NCBI GenBank assembly: GCA_937898545.1
Contig: CALEJV010000003.1
Coordinates: 253,193 to 317,192 of the forward strand
Length of the DNA stretch: 64,000 nucleotides
Source of the DNA: an uncultured Candidatus Saccharibacteria bacterium
GTDB taxonomy: Bacteria > Patescibacteriota > Saccharimonadia > Saccharimonadales > Saccharimonadaceae
Direction: 5' to 3'
This document shows positions 1 through 53,517 of the stretch, one piece after another (position 1 is the first letter of the stretch; each line of letters starts with the position of its first letter). Below the pieces are notes generated by a model. It saw nothing but the letters and a program-made list of their open reading frames with translations. It searched no databases and had not been told where the DNA came from. The translations under genes were made by a program, and so were the position numbers.

Positions 1-1485
1 AGCAATGACGATCGTTGTATCAACCAAAAAGTCCGGGTTAGCCGTGGCCAAACCGTTGCGAAGGGCGACACGCTCATCGAGGGCGCGTCCATTGCCGATG
101 GTGAGCTCGCCCTCGGTAAGGACTTGCTGGTAGCCTTTATGCCGTGGGGCGGCTACAACATGGACGACGCAGTAATTTTGAGCCGCCGCTTGGTAGAGGA
201 TGATACCCTTACCAGCATTAATATCAAGGACTACACCGTCGAGGTGCGTGAGACAAAACTTGGCCCAGAGATCGTGACGCGCGATATTCCCAATGTGAGT
301 GAGGATAGCCTTCGCCACTTGGATGAGAGCGGTATTGTGCAGATTGGCTCTGAGGTCAAGGCGGGCGATGTTTTGGTCGGCAAGATTACACCAAAGGGTG
401 AGCAAGAGCTCAGCAGTGAGGAGCGCTTGCTGCGTGCAATCTTTGGTGAAAAGGCCAAGGATGTGCGCGACACCAGCCAGCGCATGAACAATGCTGGTGG
501 CGGTAAAGTTGTTGGCGTCAAGGTATTTAGCCGCGAGAATGGCCACGAGCTCAAGACGGGCGTATTGATGCAGATTCAGATCTTTGTCGCGCAATTGCGC
601 AAGATTGGTGTTGGTGACAAGATGGCTGGCCGCCACGGTAACAAGGGTGTGTGTGCCCGCGTTATGGCGGTAGAGGATATGCCATACCTAGCTGATGGTA
701 CTCCTGTTGATGTCATCCTTAACCCGCTTGGTGTGCCAAGCCGTATGAACCTTGGCCAGCTCTTTGAGACGCACCTCGGCATGGCTGCACGAGCACTCGG
801 CTACAAGGTTGCCACGCCGCCGTTCAACGGTGTGCCAGCCGATACCATCAAGGATGAGCTTGAAAAGGCTGGCATTGCGCGCGACGGCAAGAGCCAACTC
901 TACGATGGCCTGAGCGGTGAGCCATTCGAGGAGCGTACAACAGTCGGCGTGATGCATATGATCAAACTCCACCACATGGTGAGCGACAAGATCCACGCCC
1001 GCAGCACTGGCCCGTACACTATGGTGACTCAGCAGCCACTCGGTGGTAAGGCTCAAAATGGTGGCCAGCGCCTCGGAGAGATGGAGGTTTGGGCACTCGA
1101 AGCTTACGGTGCTGCGACCACTCTACAGGAGATGCTGACAATTAAATCAGACGACGTGTATGGCCGAGCCAAAGCCTACGAGGCAATCATCAAGGACGAG
1201 CCAATTGCCGGGCCAAAGCTACCTGAGAGCTTTAACGTGCTTGTCAAGGAGCTGCAAGGTTTGGGTCTGCGTGTTGACCTGCTGGATGAGTCTGACGAGT
1301 CGGTTGATGCCGAGCATGTCATTGCTGCTGCAGGCCCTGCTGACAAAACCGTCCCATCTGACGAGAGCGATGACGAAGCAACCTATCTTGATGAATCCGA
1401 CGGCATTGGCACGATCGCTGATGACAGCGGCATGTCCGTCCAAGATATTGACACAGTAGAAAACCTAAGCGAGGAGGAAGCCTAA
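1..1485 (+). CDS. rpoB: RNA polymerase beta subunit, 3' part (gene begins before the window)
   Basis: Frame open from base 1 ([10 protein letters not shown]...[16 protein letters not shown]). Contains [24 protein letters not shown] and [12 protein letters not shown]. Ends in an acidic tail of about 65 aa. Confidence 0.99.
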
Positions 1486-1486
1486 G

Positions 1487-4400
1487 ATGTCCCACGTGGT
1501 AACAGATCACGATATCGCCAATTTTGATGCGGTACGCTTGGCCGTCGCCAGCCCCGAGGATATCCTCAAGTGGAGCTACGGCGAAGTCACCAAGCCGGAG
1601 ACGATTAACTATCGAACCCAGAAGCCTGAGCGCGATGGCCTGTTTTGTGAGCGAATTTTTGGCCCAGTCAAAGATATCAACCCACACGACAGCAAGCTCA
1701 AGGGTGTGCGCAGCCGCGAAGCTGCAGTAGACAAGAATGGCGAGCTTGTCACCAAGTCGATCGTGCGCCGCGAGCGGATGGGGCACATTAGCTTGGCCAC
1801 CCCTGTTGCGCATATTTGGTTTATGCGCGGCACGCCCAGTGCAATGAGCCTCTTGCTAGGTATTACGGTGCGCAATCTCGAGAAGATCGCCTACTTTGCT
1901 ACCTATGTCATCCTCGACGTCGACGCTGAAACACGCGACGCTTATTTGACTGACCTTGAGGCTGAGACTGAGGCGGCACGGGCTGCCATCAAGATTCGCT
2001 TTCAGCGTGAAGCTGAAGCTGATGGGGCAGACGTGAAGGCTCTTGCTGAGCAGCAAACACGCGAGTACGAAGAGCTTGAGGCAACCTACAGCCAAAAGAA
2101 AGCCCAGCTCGAGAGTCTGCAAAAGTGCGCCCTCCTAAGCGATACCGACTATCGCAACTTACCCGAAGAGTATGAAGAGCTCGTGAAGGTTGGTATGGGT
2201 GGTGATGCCCTCAAGGCGCTCCTTGATGATATCGACCTCGACGCGCTTATCGCCGATCTGCAAGAAGAAGCCGAAGGCGCGCGTGGTCAACGCGAGAAGA
2301 AGCTCCTTAAGCGCCTTAAGGTGCTGGAGGGTATGCAAGCGGCAGGTATTAAACCATCGAGCCTGTGTATGACGGTTTTGCCAGTCATTCCACCAGATTT
2401 GCGGCCAATGGTAGCCTTGAGTGGTGGACGCTTTGCGACGAGTGATCTCAACGACCTCTACCGCCGCGTCATCAACCGTAATAACCGTCTCAAGAAGCTC
2501 ATCGAGCTCAACGCACCAGAGGTAATTCAACGCAACGAGAAGCGTATGCTGCAAGAAGCGGTCGATAGCCTGATTGATAACTCGGCTGCTCGTGGTGGCC
2601 GTGCTGTCAACGCAACTGGTGGCCGCCGCCGCCTTAAGAGCATTAGCGATATGCTTAAGGGTAAGCAAGGGCGCTTCCGCCAGAACTTGCTGGGTAAGCG
2701 CGTCGACTACTCGGGCCGTTCGGTCATCGTGGTGGGCCCGAAGCTCAAGATTCACCAGTGTGGTTTGCCAAAGCAGATGGCAATTGAGCTCTTCAAACCA
2801 TTTGTCATCAGCTGGCTTATCAAGGGCGATTACGCTCACAACATCCGTAGTGCAACGCGCCTAATTGAGGCAGGTGAAGCGGTTGTGTGGGATGCATTGG
2901 ATGAGGTAATCAAGGGCAAGTATGTCCTGCTTAACCGTGCGCCATCACTACACCGCTTGAGTATCCAAGCCTTCCAGCCAAAGCTGGTTGAGGGTAAGGC
3001 GATCCAGCTTCACCCGCTCGTCGCTAACGGCTTTAATGCCGACTACGATGGCGACCAGATGGCTGTCCACTTGCCGCTCAGCGCCGAAGCACAGGCCGAA
3101 GCACGCGAGCTGATGAGTGCCGTCAATAACCTGCTTAAGCCTGCCGACGGGAGTCCTGTCCTCAGTATCGACCAGGACGTGGTGCTCGGTAACTACTACC
3201 TCACATATGAGAAGCCTTCGGCTCAGACTGATACTGTCGCTGTCTTTGCCGACAGCCGGGCTGCTGAGCTAGCCTACGACATGGGCAAGCTCCACCTGCA
3301 GAGCCCGATTCGCATCCGGGCTAAGGGTGAAATCCGGACGACTACCTTGGGGCGTGTCTTCTTTAACGAGATCCTGCCAGAGGACTTCCCTTACAACAAC
3401 AACGTCCAGACCAAGAAAGAGCTTAAGCGGGTACTTGGTCAGATCTTCGAGCGTTATGGCGCTGCTGAGACTGCTATCACTGCTGACCGCATGAAGGGCT
3501 TGGCCTTCCGCTTTGCCACCACTGCTGCGGTGTCGACTGGTATGGAAGACTATCTCAGCTTCGACGAAATTGCTGACTTCGTGGCTGAGGGTGACGCACG
3601 CTCTGCTGCGATCTCGGAGCAGCTCGACCAAGGGCTCATTACCGAGGATGAGCGCTACACATTGACCGTCAACAACTGGCGCACCGTCGACCGCAAGGTA
3701 GAGGATTTCCTGCGCAGCCAGTTGGCCCACATGGACACCTCTGTCGCAACGATGGTGAACTCTGGTGCTCGTGGTAGCGTCAACAATATTAAGCTAGCGA
3801 GTGCGATGATCGGTATCCAGGTGGATGCTGCCAACCGCGAGATTGAGCTGCCAGTGCGTAGCAACTTCAAGCGAGGGTTGTCGAGCCTGGAAGCTTTCGT
3901 GGCAACGCGTGGTGCTCGCAAGGGGCTTATCGATACCGCCCTCAAGACGGCCGACTCTGGCTATCTCACGCGTCGCTTGGTCGATGTCTCGCAGGATGTC
4001 TTTACTGTTGAGGATGAAGAGGGCGATGACGATGGCTTCACTATCTATCGCAATGAGTCTGAGGAGACGATGATCGAGTTTGGCAACCGCTTGTTTGGCC
4101 GCTACACCGCCGAGGCAGTGCCAGGCCACCTCGACCGCGACCAGCTCATTACACGTGAGATTGCCAACGCTATCGAGGCAGATCAGTCGATCGACCAAGT
4201 ACGTATCCAGTCTGTCCTCTCTACTAAGAACTTGCACGGTATTCCACGTAAGAGTTACGGGATCGATATGGCAACTGGCCAACTCGTCGATGGTTCGCAG
4301 CCAGTTGGGGTTATTGCCGCGCAGTCGGTCGGTGAGCCAGGTACACAGCTGACGCTTAATACCTTCCACAGCTCTGGTGTTGGTGGGTCAGACATCACCC

Positions 4401-5359
4401 AGGGTCTGCCGCGTGTCGAGGAGCTCTTTGAGGCACGTAACCCGAAAGGTCAGGCCTACGTCACAGAAGTCGCTGGTTTGGTCGATATCTGGGAAGATGG
4501 CAAGAAGTACGTTGTACAGGTCACGCCACAAGCAGGTAAGGTAGAGCGTATGCCGCTCGATGGCCGCATGGTGATGGTACAATCGGGCAGCAAGGTCAAG
4601 GTTGGCGACGTCATCGCGTCATTCGACGATGGCACACAGCCACTCACTGCACCGTTTGATGGAGTGGTTGAGTCCACCGGTGATTCGCTTGTCCTCACAG
4701 GCAACGCGACAGCACCAGTCCGCTACGAAATCCCTGGCACGATGTATCTTGTCGTTAAGCCAGGCGATATGGTCGAGCCAGGCGATCGCCTGACACTTGG
4801 TTCGCTCAACCTGCACGACCTCATGCGCCTCAAGGGCACAGAGGCAACCCAGCGCTACATCATCAACGAAGTACTTCGTATCTATGCTGCGCAGGGCCAG
4901 GATGTGGCTGGCAAGCACCTTGAGATCATCGTCCGGCAGATGTTTAGCCGGGTGCAGATTGATGATCCAGGCGACAGCACCTTCGTCATGGGCGACATCA
5001 TCTCCAAGGCATCAGTGGTTGATGCCAACAAGGAGCTTGTTGCCCAGGGCAAAACACCAGCCCAGTATGCACAGCTGCTGCTTGGTATCACCAAGGTGAG
5101 TATCTGGAGTGATAGCTGGCTGTCTGCTGCGTCGTTCCAAGACACAACTCGCGTGCTGATCAACGCTGCCACCAGTGGCCGCGCCGACCACCTCAAGGGT
5201 CTTAAGGAGAACGTCATCATCGGCAACAAAGTGCCGGTTGGTACGGGTGCGCATCCACTGCCGCTTGAGAAAAATGACTCTCCGGAGGATGAGTTTGTCG
5301 CCGAAGCCCAGGCCGAAGAGGCTGAGCCAGAAGTGACAATTGCTACTGATGAGCTGTAG
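1487..5359 (+). CDS. rpoC: RNA polymerase beta' subunit
   Basis: GKQGRFRQNLLGKRVDYSGRSVI, catalytic NADYDGDQM, bridge helix GARKGLIDTALKTADSGYLTRRL, trigger loop GEPGTQLT, SAASFQDT. Confidence 0.99.
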   Translation: MSHVVTDHDIANFDAVRLAVASPEDILKWSYGEVTKPETINYRTQKPERDGLFCERIFGPVKDINPHDSKLKGVRSREAAVDKNGELVTKSIVRRERMGHISLATPVAHIWFMRGTPSAMSLLLGITVRNLEKIAYFATYVILDVDAETRDAYLTDLEAETEAARAAIKIRFQREAEADGADVKALAEQQTREYEELEATYSQKKAQLESLQKCALLSDTDYRNLPEEYEELVKVGMGGDALKALLDDIDLDALIADLQEEAEGARGQREKKLLKRLKVLEGMQAAGIKPSSLCMTVLPVIPPDLRPMVALSGGRFATSDLNDLYRRVINRNNRLKKLIELNAPEVIQRNEKRMLQEAVDSLIDNSAARGGRAVNATGGRRRLKSISDMLKGKQGRFRQNLLGKRVDYSGRSVIVVGPKLKIHQCGLPKQMAIELFKPFVISWLIKGDYAHNIRSATRLIEAGEAVVWDALDEVIKGKYVLLNRAPSLHRLSIQAFQPKLVEGKAIQLHPLVANGFNADYDGDQMAVHLPLSAEAQAEARELMSAVNNLLKPADGSPVLSIDQDVVLGNYYLTYEKPSAQTDTVAVFADSRAAELAYDMGKLHLQSPIRIRAKGEIRTTTLGRVFFNEILPEDFPYNNNVQTKKELKRVLGQIFERYGAAETAITADRMKGLAFRFATTAAVSTGMEDYLSFDEIADFVAEGDARSAAISEQLDQGLITEDERYTLTVNNWRTVDRKVEDFLRSQLAHMDTSVATMVNSGARGSVNNIKLASAMIGIQVDAANREIELPVRSNFKRGLSSLEAFVATRGARKGLIDTALKTADSGYLTRRLVDVSQDVFTVEDEEGDDDGFTIYRNESEETMIEFGNRLFGRYTAEAVPGHLDRDQLITREIANAIEADQSIDQVRIQSVLSTKNLHGIPRKSYGIDMATGQLVDGSQPVGVIAAQSVGEPGTQLTLNTFHSSGVGGSDITQGLPRVEELFEARNPKGQAYVTEVAGLVDIWEDGKKYVVQVTPQAGKVERMPLDGRMVMVQSGSKVKVGDVIASFDDGTQPLTAPFDGVVESTGDSLVLTGNATAPVRYEIPGTMYLVVKPGDMVEPGDRLTLGSLNLHDLMRLKGTEATQRYIINEVLRIYAAQGQDVAGKHLEIIVRQMFSRVQIDDPGDSTFVMGDIISKASVVDANKELVAQGKTPAQYAQLLLGITKVSIWSDSWLSAASFQDTTRVLINAATSGRADHLKGLKENVIIGNKVPVGTGAHPLPLEKNDSPEDEFVAEAQAEEAEPEVTIATDEL

Positions 5360-20004: not shown

Positions 20005-20121
20005 ATGAAAGTTCGTGCGAGTGTCAAAAAGATCAGCCCCGATGATCAGCTGGTCCGGCGCAAAGGCCGACTCCGTGTCATCAACAAGAAAAAACCTAAG
20101 AATAAGCAAAGGCAGGGTTAA
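20005..20121 (+). CDS. rpmJ: 50S ribosomal protein L36, zinc-free type (missed by the ORF track)
   Basis: Hand-translated [38 protein letters not shown] (38 aa); syntenic between infA and rpsM. Confidence 0.97.
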
Positions 20122-34421: not shown

Positions 34422-34631
34422 ATGGCAAAGAAGAACAATACAAAGCGAAAGATTATTGCTCTTGTGAGCAATCTCACCAAACACCGTACCTACGTAACAC
34501 GTAAGAACACGATGAACACTCCAGATAAGCTTGTTCTGCGCAAGTATGACCCAATCGCTCGCCGGCACGCTACCTACACTGAGACGAAGAAATCGCTCGG
34601 CCGTAACGAAGTCAAGCCGCGCAAAGGCTAG
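34422..34631 (+). CDS. rpmG: 50S ribosomal protein L33, zinc-free, with C-terminal extension
   Basis: I.L.S......Y.T.KN..NTPDKL.LRKYDP..R.H..Y.E.K. Confidence 0.95.
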
Positions 34632-51862: not shown

Positions 51863-52008
51863 GATTACTGCTATCAACAGCTTATATAACAGGGAACCGG
51901 GAACCCTCTTGCTCGCGCTTGGAGCTTTTTGATTCTATTGATTTATTTGCAATTACTCCTTCTGTATTTCGATCGCATCTCCATCCATTCTGCGGTATAA
52001 TATAGCAA

Positions 52009-53517
52009 ATGAGCAGAGCACTATATCGGACGTATCGGAGTCGGTCGCTTGATGAGATTGTGGGGCAGTCGCATATCACGCGGATTTTGCAGCGGGCAAT
52101 TGCTCGTGGGCGTATTGCTCATGCCTATCTCCTAACAGGGCCACGTGGAGTGGGTAAGACATCGATCGCGCGTATCTTGGCGCACGAGATCAACGGCCTG
52201 CCATACACCGATGAGTCAACTCATCTTGATATTATCGAGATCGATGCAGCGAGCAATAACTCTGTGGAGGATATCCGTGATTTGCGCGATAAGGTGCAAA
52301 TTGCACCAACCAGCAGCCCAAAAAAGATCTACATTATCGATGAGGTTCATATGCTCAGCAAGTCGGCCTTTAATGCCTTGCTCAAGACACTAGAAGAGCC
52401 ACCCGAGCACGTCGTCTTCATTCTTGCGACGACCGACGCCGACAAGCTCCCCGCAACGATCTTGAGCCGAGTACAACGCTTCAATTTTCGAGCAATTAGT
52501 CCGCGTGATGCAGCCAAGCATTTGGCATTTATTGCTAAGCAAGAGAAAATTGCCATTACGCCCGATGCGCTCGAGCTGATTGCCGAGCAAGGGAAGGGAA
52601 GCTTTCGAGATAGCATTAGTTTGCTCGACCAACTGCGCTCACTAAGCGATGAGACAATCGACCGCGCGATGGTCGCAGAGGTGCTGGGCCTTGCGCAGGA
52701 TGAGCTAGTAGAGGGGCTGCTGGCTGCTTATGCTGCGGCAGATATTGGCCGCGCTGCCCAACTGATTGATGAGGCTGAGGCAGCTGGCACACCGGCTGAA
52801 CTTCTTGCCGAGCAGCTGCTTGGTATCGCGCGCCAGCGCGTTGTAGAGGACGCAGCACTGTTGCCATTACTCGATAAACTACTGGCCGTACCGCGAGCCG
52901 GTTGGCCGCGCATTGCGCTGCTTACCGCTCTTGCAAGCCGGGCAGCGCCACCAGTCGCAGCGCCTGCGCCTCACCGTCAGCCATCACCTGTTACCGTCAG
53001 TGAGCCAGTTGCGCCATATACCCACTCACCAGCTGCATCATCATCGCAAGCATCTCCTGCAGCTCCTCCTTCAGACCCTCCTCGTCAGGAGACGGATGGT
53101 ACGGCAGCATCATCGGCTGGTCAGTCTGGTACTCCAAGTGCTTCCGCTACTGATCATACACCAGCCAAGCAACCAAGTGTTTCTGCTGCAAACGATGAAA
53201 CACCCGCAGCAAGCCCAGACCCAGTCGACTTCCCATGGGAGCAATTTCTTGATGCAGTAGGGGCAGTCGGCGCGCGCACGTACCTCACCAAGGCAGGTCA
53301 CGCGTTTGACGGCCAGACGCTAACGATCTACGCTGGCAAAAAATTCGCCAAAATGCAGATCGATCGCGCCCTCCCCACACTCAGCGCAGCACTGCACCGC
53401 CTTGGCATTACTGCAGAGATTGCCATCTTAGCTACCAGTAAGCCGCCCAAAGATCGCCAAAAAGCCGCCATTCTTGCTATGATGGGGGGAGGAGAAGAAA
53501 TTACTATCGATGGCTGA
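52009..53517 (+). CDS. dnaX: DNA polymerase III subunit gamma/tau
   Basis: ALYR.YR, GPRGVGKTS, EIDAASN, IIDEVHMLS..AFNALLKTLEEPP and TI.SR; Pro/Ser/Ala linker. Confidence 0.98.
   Translation: MSRALYRTYRSRSLDEIVGQSHITRILQRAIARGRIAHAYLLTGPRGVGKTSIARILAHEINGLPYTDESTHLDIIEIDAASNNSVEDIRDLRDKVQIAPTSSPKKIYIIDEVHMLSKSAFNALLKTLEEPPEHVVFILATTDADKLPATILSRVQRFNFRAISPRDAAKHLAFIAKQEKIAITPDALELIAEQGKGSFRDSISLLDQLRSLSDETIDRAMVAEVLGLAQDELVEGLLAAYAAADIGRAAQLIDEAEAAGTPAELLAEQLLGIARQRVVEDAALLPLLDKLLAVPRAGWPRIALLTALASRAAPPVAAPAPHRQPSPVTVSEPVAPYTHSPAASSSQASPAAPPSDPPRQETDGTAASSAGQSGTPSASATDHTPAKQPSVSAANDETPAASPDPVDFPWEQFLDAVGAVGARTYLTKAGHAFDGQTLTIYAGKKFAKMQIDRALPTLSAALHRLGITAEIAILATSKPPKDRQKAAILAMMGGGEEITIDG

Follow-up and report, generated by a model that had tools for sequence, protein, structure and literature searches.

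Zinc-ligand positions of the β′ subunit

The DNA analysed here (the window) is a 64,000-nucleotide stretch of contig CALEJV010000003.1 from an uncultured Candidatus Saccharibacteria bacterium, and near its start lies rpoC, the gene for the β′ subunit of RNA polymerase (RNAP). In E. coli, the first zinc site of β′ has roles in promoter-spacer contacts, at the RNA exit channel, in termination and antitermination and in contacts with factors, and the second is held to be necessary for folding and assembly. An earlier note, made from the letters alone, had claimed that this β′ has lost all eight cysteines of the two sites, over a span (1643–4270) that falls within rpoC. The genes and segments concerned are as follows.

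1..1485, forward strand: 3′ part of rpoB (β subunit), an open frame with typical β C-terminal motifs
1487..5359, forward strand: rpoC, RNA polymerase β′ subunit, 1290 amino acids, single copy
1658..1753, forward strand: equivalent of the zinc-binding domain (ZBD) without cysteines, residues 58–89, FGPVKDINPHDSKLKGVRSREAAVDKNGELVT, placed by alignment and codon reading
1682–1684 (P66), 1688–1690 (D68), 1727–1729 (V81) and 1736–1738 (N84), forward strand: codons at the former ZBD ligand positions
3995..4024, forward strand: second zinc site, first element, residues 837–846, DVFTVEDEEG, with E845 at 4019–4021
4208..4261, forward strand: second zinc site, second element, residues 908–925, QSVLSTKNLHGIPRKSYG
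4223–4225 (T913), 4244–4246 (P920) and 4253–4255 (S923), forward strand: codons at the former ligand positions of the second element

The rpoB stop codon lies one base upstream of the rpoC start, an order that is identical in related contigs, where the wider context is rpoB–rpoC–rpsL–rpsG–fusA. The rpoC product contains Pfam Rpb1 domains 1–5 in order (PF04997, PF00623, PF04983, PF05000 and PF04998), and among PDB entries it is matched best, over its full length, by β′ subunits of bacteria (7L7B, 6WVJ, E. coli and M. tuberculosis; E = 0). Its catalytic motif reads NADYDGD, with the three aspartates present and the phenylalanine of NADFDGD replaced by tyrosine. The gene is the sole rpoC copy in a 1.05-Mb genome that is 95% complete. 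The rpoC stretch was found mostly in sequencing runs from people, which indicates that the organism is human-associated.

We found that all eight ligand cysteines are indeed absent, and the three strings quoted in support of that claim lie at residues 58–89, 837–846 and 908–925. HMMER alignment to the β′ subunit of C. difficile (PDB 7L7B), which was gap-free over all three stretches, placed P66, D68, V81 and N84 opposite the ZBD cysteines (C70, C72, C85 and C88 in E. coli numbering) and E845, T913, P920 and S923 opposite those of the second site (Zn2; C814, C888, C895 and C898). Neither the canonical N-terminal Cys4 pattern (CxC...CxxC) nor that of the second site (C...C-x6-C-x2-C) is present in this β′, which has four cysteines in total, at positions 54, 214, 294 and 425. 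The codons at the eight former ligand positions are, in order, CCA, GAC, GTA, AAT, GAG, ACT, CCA and AGT; six of them are at least two base changes away from TGY, and ACT (T913) and AGT (S923) are one change away.

We considered whether the sequence could stem from faulty assembly or binning, from a pseudogene or from a second, redundant rpoC. More than 100 entries of a large protein database are 99–100% identical to this β′ over residues 1–400; most are full length, and they come from many independent contigs of up to 1.1 Mb. This rules out the assembly errors that the earlier note had named as a possible undoing of its claim. Additionally, 29 relatives from the same order carry the same residues despite saturated synonymous sites. 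The frame is intact at 1290 amino acids with all catalytic motifs, the gene is single-copy, its context is conserved in relatives and the segment is under purifying selection (see below). We found no point in favour of an artefact and count this explanation as already refuted, its probability being close to nil.

Loss of both sites in a single order

Among 17 genomes of the same order (Saccharimonadales), whose β′ proteins are 64–91% identical, the ZBD equivalent reads NPHD.K.KGVRSREAAVDKNGE[LI]VT. Most of its positions are invariant, namely N65, P66, H67, D68, K70, K72, G73, R75, R77, E78, A80, D82, K83, G85 and E86. ZBD cysteines were likewise absent from 19 species-representative loci with the same motif, which bear the names Candidatus Saccharibacteria, Saccharimonas, Nanosynbacter or Saccharimonadales. 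In the other orders of the class, 20 genomes from about 19 families kept all eight cysteines. The four ZBD cysteines were kept in 61 loci, 59 of which come from other lineages, including Clostridia, Bacteroidota, Gemmatimonadota and other Patescibacteria, and two of which are further 'Saccharibacteria' loci.

Clusters formed at 50% identity from 1.8 billion proteins supplied 119 representatives, which gave a consistent distribution. Cysteine was present at all eight positions in 95 representatives, and most of the other 24 were fragments gapped at one site. The only representatives with a cysteine-less ZBD were P0001, P0122–P0125 and one fragment, all of which carry the derived INP motif. Four unrelated representatives (P0177, P0185, P0189 and P0234) kept the ZBD cysteines and had none of the four at the second site, so the second-site half of the trait is not unique. 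The description of both sites as near-universal, which the earlier note had taken as established, holds in these samples, with the qualification that these four also lack the second site.

To keep the trait itself out of the phylogeny, the columns of the ZBD and of the second site were excluded; in the resulting maximum-likelihood tree, the 14 cysteine-less rows formed one clade (support of 100 in the Shimodaira–Hasegawa-like approximate likelihood-ratio test, SH-aLRT), and a single change is needed to explain them. The sister clade (families f30, f31 and f35) has its cysteines intact. Because the cysteine-less sequences form one clade and both the sister clade and the other orders retain the ligands, the loss is placed in one order: it is a shared derived character of that order and not of the whole class. 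An RpoC survey across Saccharibacteria and other lineages of the candidate phyla radiation, which had been suggested for mapping the loss, has in this way been carried out in part. Taken as a whole, the data make it likely that this gene, the only rpoC of its genome, is functional in a bacterium of the Saccharimonadales (Candidatus Saccharibacteria, TM7) and, jointly with this, that both of its Cys4 sites were lost in place and one time. Under such a history, the order's ancestor would have lost both sites through substitution in place, a single time, and inheritance would have been vertical since.

Constraint at the former ligand positions

What followed the loss differed in kind between the two sites. 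In 29 genomes of the order, position 66 of the ZBD equivalent is proline in all but one (28/29), position 68 is aspartate throughout (29/29), position 81 is valine or isoleucine, and position 84 is asparagine or lysine. The length of the former ZBD is unchanged, and its basic residues K70, K72, R75, R77 and K83 are invariant. Of these, K70 and K83 are the equivalents of E. coli K74 and K87, which touch the promoter spacer on its non-template strand (bioRxiv 10.1101/2020.01.02.893370). Across the ZBD codons of the 29 genomes, the proportion of nonsynonymous differences (pN) was 0.066 and that of synonymous differences (pS) was 0.79, which is saturated; the resulting pN/pS of 0.083, set beside 0.18 for residues 40–197 as a whole, shows that the segment is functional.

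Throughout the order, neither of the last two ligands of the second site is left. Position 920 varies among proline, serine, alanine and glycine, and position 923 is serine in each of the 17 order sequences aligned and alanine in the representative P0122. Relics of the first two ligands are found in some families (EEDC and SVLSC, in L022, L024 and L028), with free variation elsewhere. S923 aside, the former ligand positions of this site thus vary freely, a pattern that is what would be expected of an abandoned metal site.

We also considered a general avoidance of cysteine and rejected it, since cysteine makes up 0.97% of the proteome and conserved non-ligand cysteines are retained. There are 11 cysteine columns common to the β′ subunits of the 20 genomes from other orders, and all eight ligand columns among them are replaced in the cysteine-less β′. 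The non-ligand C425 is kept, as is C54, which is cysteine in 19/20 of the other-order genomes. A third non-ligand cysteine column (HPLVC) was lost only in the family to which the window belongs.

A β′ subunit predicted to bind no structural zinc

The best-supported reading of these data is that this β′ probably carries no structural zinc, a prediction made from the sequences compared here. Within the clade, represented by the aligned loci of the order and the cluster representatives, we found no common set of three or four plausible metal ligands. The zinc-free RNAP proposed in the earlier note is thus borne out as far as the loss of both Cys4 sets, its single origin, the purifying selection and the lack of an alternative ligand set are concerned; zinc-freeness itself is what we infer from them, and the confidence of AlphaFold2 in the ZBD equivalent is low.

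One or both sites could instead still hold a metal through ligands other than cysteine (histidine, aspartate, glutamate or asparagine). The window's protein has H67, D68, D82, N84 and E86 close to where the ligands used to be, and two of these, D68 and D82, show conservation across the order. However, two of the four former ligand positions of the ZBD are occupied by proline (serine in one locus) and by valine or isoleucine, and proline, valine and isoleucine cannot coordinate a metal. Of the other candidates, H67 gives way to tyrosine, asparagine or phenylalanine in relatives, N84 to glutamate, lysine, glutamine or serine, and D68 to serine in one deep lineage. Only S923 is conserved among the former second-site ligands, and even this residue is alanine in P0122. 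As the clade shares no three- or four-ligand set, we regard continued metal binding through such residues as decidedly unlikely.

Structure prediction, which the earlier note had proposed as a check, gave different confidence at the two sites. An AlphaFold2 model of residues 1–1000, based on a 59-row alignment, had a mean predicted local distance difference test score (pLDDT) of 82. The surroundings of the second site were modelled at about 70–87, which makes a metal-free fold plausible there. The ZBD equivalent reached only 49–60, which leaves the retention of a ZBD-like fold uncertain.

Low scores of this kind are also what one would see if the ZBD equivalent had given up its ribbon fold and become a flexible basic loop that contacts DNA and RNA electrostatically. 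The model shows little regular structure in residues 61–90 between flanks at 82–95, and the basic residues are retained. Yet the conserved positions go well beyond the basic ones: the non-basic residues P66, D68, G73, E78, A80, D82, G85 and E86 are invariant across orthologues that are as little as 64% identical, the length is strictly kept, and a pN/pS of 0.08 reflects more constraint than a floppy charged loop would need. The low pLDDT may, moreover, reflect an alignment dominated by cysteine-containing homologues. A flexible loop is therefore a doubtful explanation of the conserved segment.

Several observations nevertheless weigh against a zinc-free β′ that is confined to this order and keeps its folds. 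The pLDDT over residues 61–90 was 60, 49 and 58 in the 1000-residue model, and a prediction of the isolated N-terminus (residues 12–178, 47-row alignment) was poor, with a mean pLDDT of 61. A cation could conceivably be held by the conserved acidic residues D68, E78, D82 and E86. The genomes of other orders that were read residue by residue are 20 of about 95, a limited sampling, and the survey of β′ as a whole covers sampled genomes, loci and cluster representatives, not all bacteria.

If, as we think probable, β′ binds no structural zinc, the folds would have to be held in another way. Where a canonical ZBD has its two zinc knuckles (CxC and CxxC), this β′ appears to have acquired turn-prone sequences: N-P-H-D, which would form an Asx-Pro turn, and D-K-N-G, which would form a type I′ turn. 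A hydrophobic contact between Pro66 and Val81, together with a polar contact between Asp68 and Asn84, may substitute for the metal. The small domain would then still offer a basic face to the spacer DNA and, at the exit channel, to the nascent RNA, the second site would now serve as a metal-free packing element, and the core enzyme would bind no structural zinc at either place.

Loss of cysteine–zinc modules in other proteins

Other proteins of the genome have also lost zinc-binding cysteines, and three of the genes lie in the window.

20005..20121, forward strand: rpmJ, ribosomal protein L36, cysteine-free (KKISPDDQ...VINKKKPKN; SPDD...N)
34422–34631, forward strand: ribosomal protein L33, cysteine-free form
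52006..53514 (stop to stop; C3:305198–306706), forward strand: dnaX (clamp-loader tau/gamma), Cys4 zinc module deleted, by comparison with an E. coli query

L36 was cysteine-free in 14/14 genomes of the order and cysteine-containing in 15/15 genomes of other orders, the same split as that of β′. The L36 of the window resembles the YkgO-type paralogue, and this likeness would suggest that the original L36 was displaced by a paralogue and not changed in place. L31 was of the long, cysteine-free type B in 12/12 genomes of the order, compared with 1/17 others. The zinc-ribbon ribosomal proteins found in the window's genome are all cysteine-free, with only such (C−) forms of L36, L31, S14 and L33; S18 and L28 also lack cysteine, and L32 was not found in the genome. 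We tried the long C− form of S14 as a further marker of the transition, and it was uninformative because it also occurs in about 7/20 of the other-order genomes. Beyond the ribosome, an apparent 14-residue deletion in DnaX relative to E. coli removes its Cys4 module, and RecR (G000:C3:9668–10405) has kept one of its four zinc-finger cysteines.

One genome of another order (G061, family f38; loci L219, L069 and L177) has a cysteine-free type-B L31, but its β′ and L36 are fully cysteine-containing. Its L31 is an independent switch.

The β′ loss thus falls within a wider, incomplete removal of cysteine–zinc modules from proteins that are abundant and process genetic information (L36, L31, RecR and DnaX), which fits constitutive zinc sparing or the protection of thiol–zinc sites from oxidants. 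Both are reasonable candidate motives, and the rationale for zinc sparing is weak. Cys4 motifs (CxxC...CxxC) are kept by UvrA, RadA, DnaJ, PriA, two Fur-family proteins and the prepilin peptidase, which does not favour zinc sparing as the motive. Nor does the distribution of ZIP-family transporters, found in 11/15 genomes of the order and 10/20 others: their presence in both groups indicates that there was no order-specific loss of zinc uptake. Loss of a zinc importer at the same node was therefore rejected, as ZIP is present in most genomes of the order and ZnuA is rare in both groups. Neither ZIP nor ZnuA gave a match in the window's own genome, but at 95% completeness their absence is not certain; close relatives of the same genus have ZIP.

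A different cause might have been the loss of a client of the ZBD, the termination factor Rho. We did not find the Rho RNA-binding domain in any of 35 genomes of the class, whereas control genomes matched, and the class appears to lack Rho. We rejected this candidate too, as Rho is absent from the 35 genomes regardless of whether their β′ has lost its cysteines.

The losses in different proteins are stepwise and were not one event. A fast-evolving lineage with a cysteine-less β′ (P0124) has a cysteine-containing L36 (KKMCQRCQ...IICPNVKH; L233:15051–15164, on the contig of P0124), which counts against a common loss: either the β′ and L36 losses were not simultaneous or L36 was re-acquired. The metagenome contig of the other deep lineage has no L36 after secY.

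On the L233 contig, only about 500 nucleotides (L233:10369–10873) separate rplN (L14) from rpsH (S8), the normal seat of L24, L5 and S14, and these three genes are either uncalled or missing in this lineage.

Comparison with known systems

The E. coli zinc sites reportedly matter for termination, antitermination and assembly. Relative to canonical β′ subunits, whose core enzymes carry two zinc ions each, the protein described here is an orthologue that agrees with them in domain order, in the length of the segments at both sites, in the catalytic aspartate triad and in the basic ZBD residues that touch spacer DNA and RNA. It differs in that all eight ligand cysteines are replaced and the knuckles read NPHD and VDKNG. 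In searches aimed at this trait, which covered open-access papers and bioRxiv preprints, we found no description of a β′ without zinc ligands.

The closest laboratory counterpart is the E. coli '4CS' core enzyme, in which the four ZBD cysteines are changed to serine. This enzyme reconstitutes and transcribes from lacUV5, and it is impaired on promoters with a weak −35 element (bioRxiv 10.1101/2020.01.02.893370). Like the natural β′, it has a cysteine-free ZBD in an enzyme that assembles and transcribes. Unlike the laboratory mutant, the natural β′ has conserved, co-evolved replacements and has also lost the second site.

Among natural systems, the cysteine-free ribosomal proteins L31, L36, S14 and L33 offer a likeness in that a small zinc-ribbon-type module loses its cysteine ligands and the function is kept. 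In model bacteria, these C− proteins are Zur-regulated paralogues that stand beside a cysteine-containing (C+) copy (PMC5007448, PMC6094098). By contrast, β′ is the product of a single catalytic-core gene that was changed in place and inherited vertically, and the window's genome holds no such C−/C+ pair for it or for L36, having one rpoC and one L36 only. DksA, similarly, is a component of transcription whose Cys4 finger is dispensable in some lineages: variants have four, two or no zinc-finger cysteines, as in the zinc-free DksA2, and their cysteine and zinc content sets redox sensitivity (PMC4850274). DksA is an accessory factor with paralogues, whereas the change described here is in a subunit of the catalytic core.

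On balance, we lean towards the view that Saccharimonadales have the first recognised cellular multisubunit RNAP without structural zinc, in which the zinc centres were lost once and replaced by metal-independent turns amid a stepwise removal of Cys4-zinc modules from L36, L31, RecR and DnaX. If this is correct, the expression machinery of these bacteria would spare zinc constitutively, resist thiol oxidation, or do both. The zinc sites of β′ have been treated as fixed features of bacterial RNAP, and here a whole order manages without either ligand set. The order thus provides a natural experiment on the role of the zinc, as well as evolution-tested sequences from which metal-free versions of the modules could be built. 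Its members include metagenome-assembled genomes that bear the name Candidatus Nanosynbacter; N. lyticus, an oral epibiont that can be cultivated, is of this genus. The loss also bears on the metal economy or oxidant resistance of ultra-small epibionts and on how drugs and factors that contact the ZBD act on them.

Fidaxomicin contacts and other β′ motifs

One such drug is fidaxomicin, whose contact edge on the ZBD directly follows the cysteine-less segment.

1754..1771, forward strand: KSIVRR, residues 90–95, fidaxomicin-contact edge of the ZBD, placed by alignment

In C. difficile, fidaxomicin touches the ZBD along its C-terminal edge, through the β′ residues K84 (the 'sensitizer'), S85, K86 and R89 (bioRxiv 10.1101/2022.01.17.476619). 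The window's protein keeps the equivalents of K84 (K90), S85 (S91) and R89 (R95), and only K86 is changed, to I92. The earlier note had suggested that the response to this drug may differ. Because the sensitizer lysine is present and the contacts are mostly retained, the sequence lends no support to that suggestion; if anything, sensitivity would be predicted, by way of the positively charged K90.

Elsewhere in β′, two stretches (3011–3055 and 4331–4381) carry further sequence features. These are the phenylalanine-to-tyrosine change in NADYDGD, a cysteine-to-alanine change in HPLVA that is restricted to the family of the window, and the trigger-loop sequence TQLTLNTFH. The trigger-loop leucine, which replaces the usual methionine, is invariant across the order, and the other orders have TQLTM.TFH.

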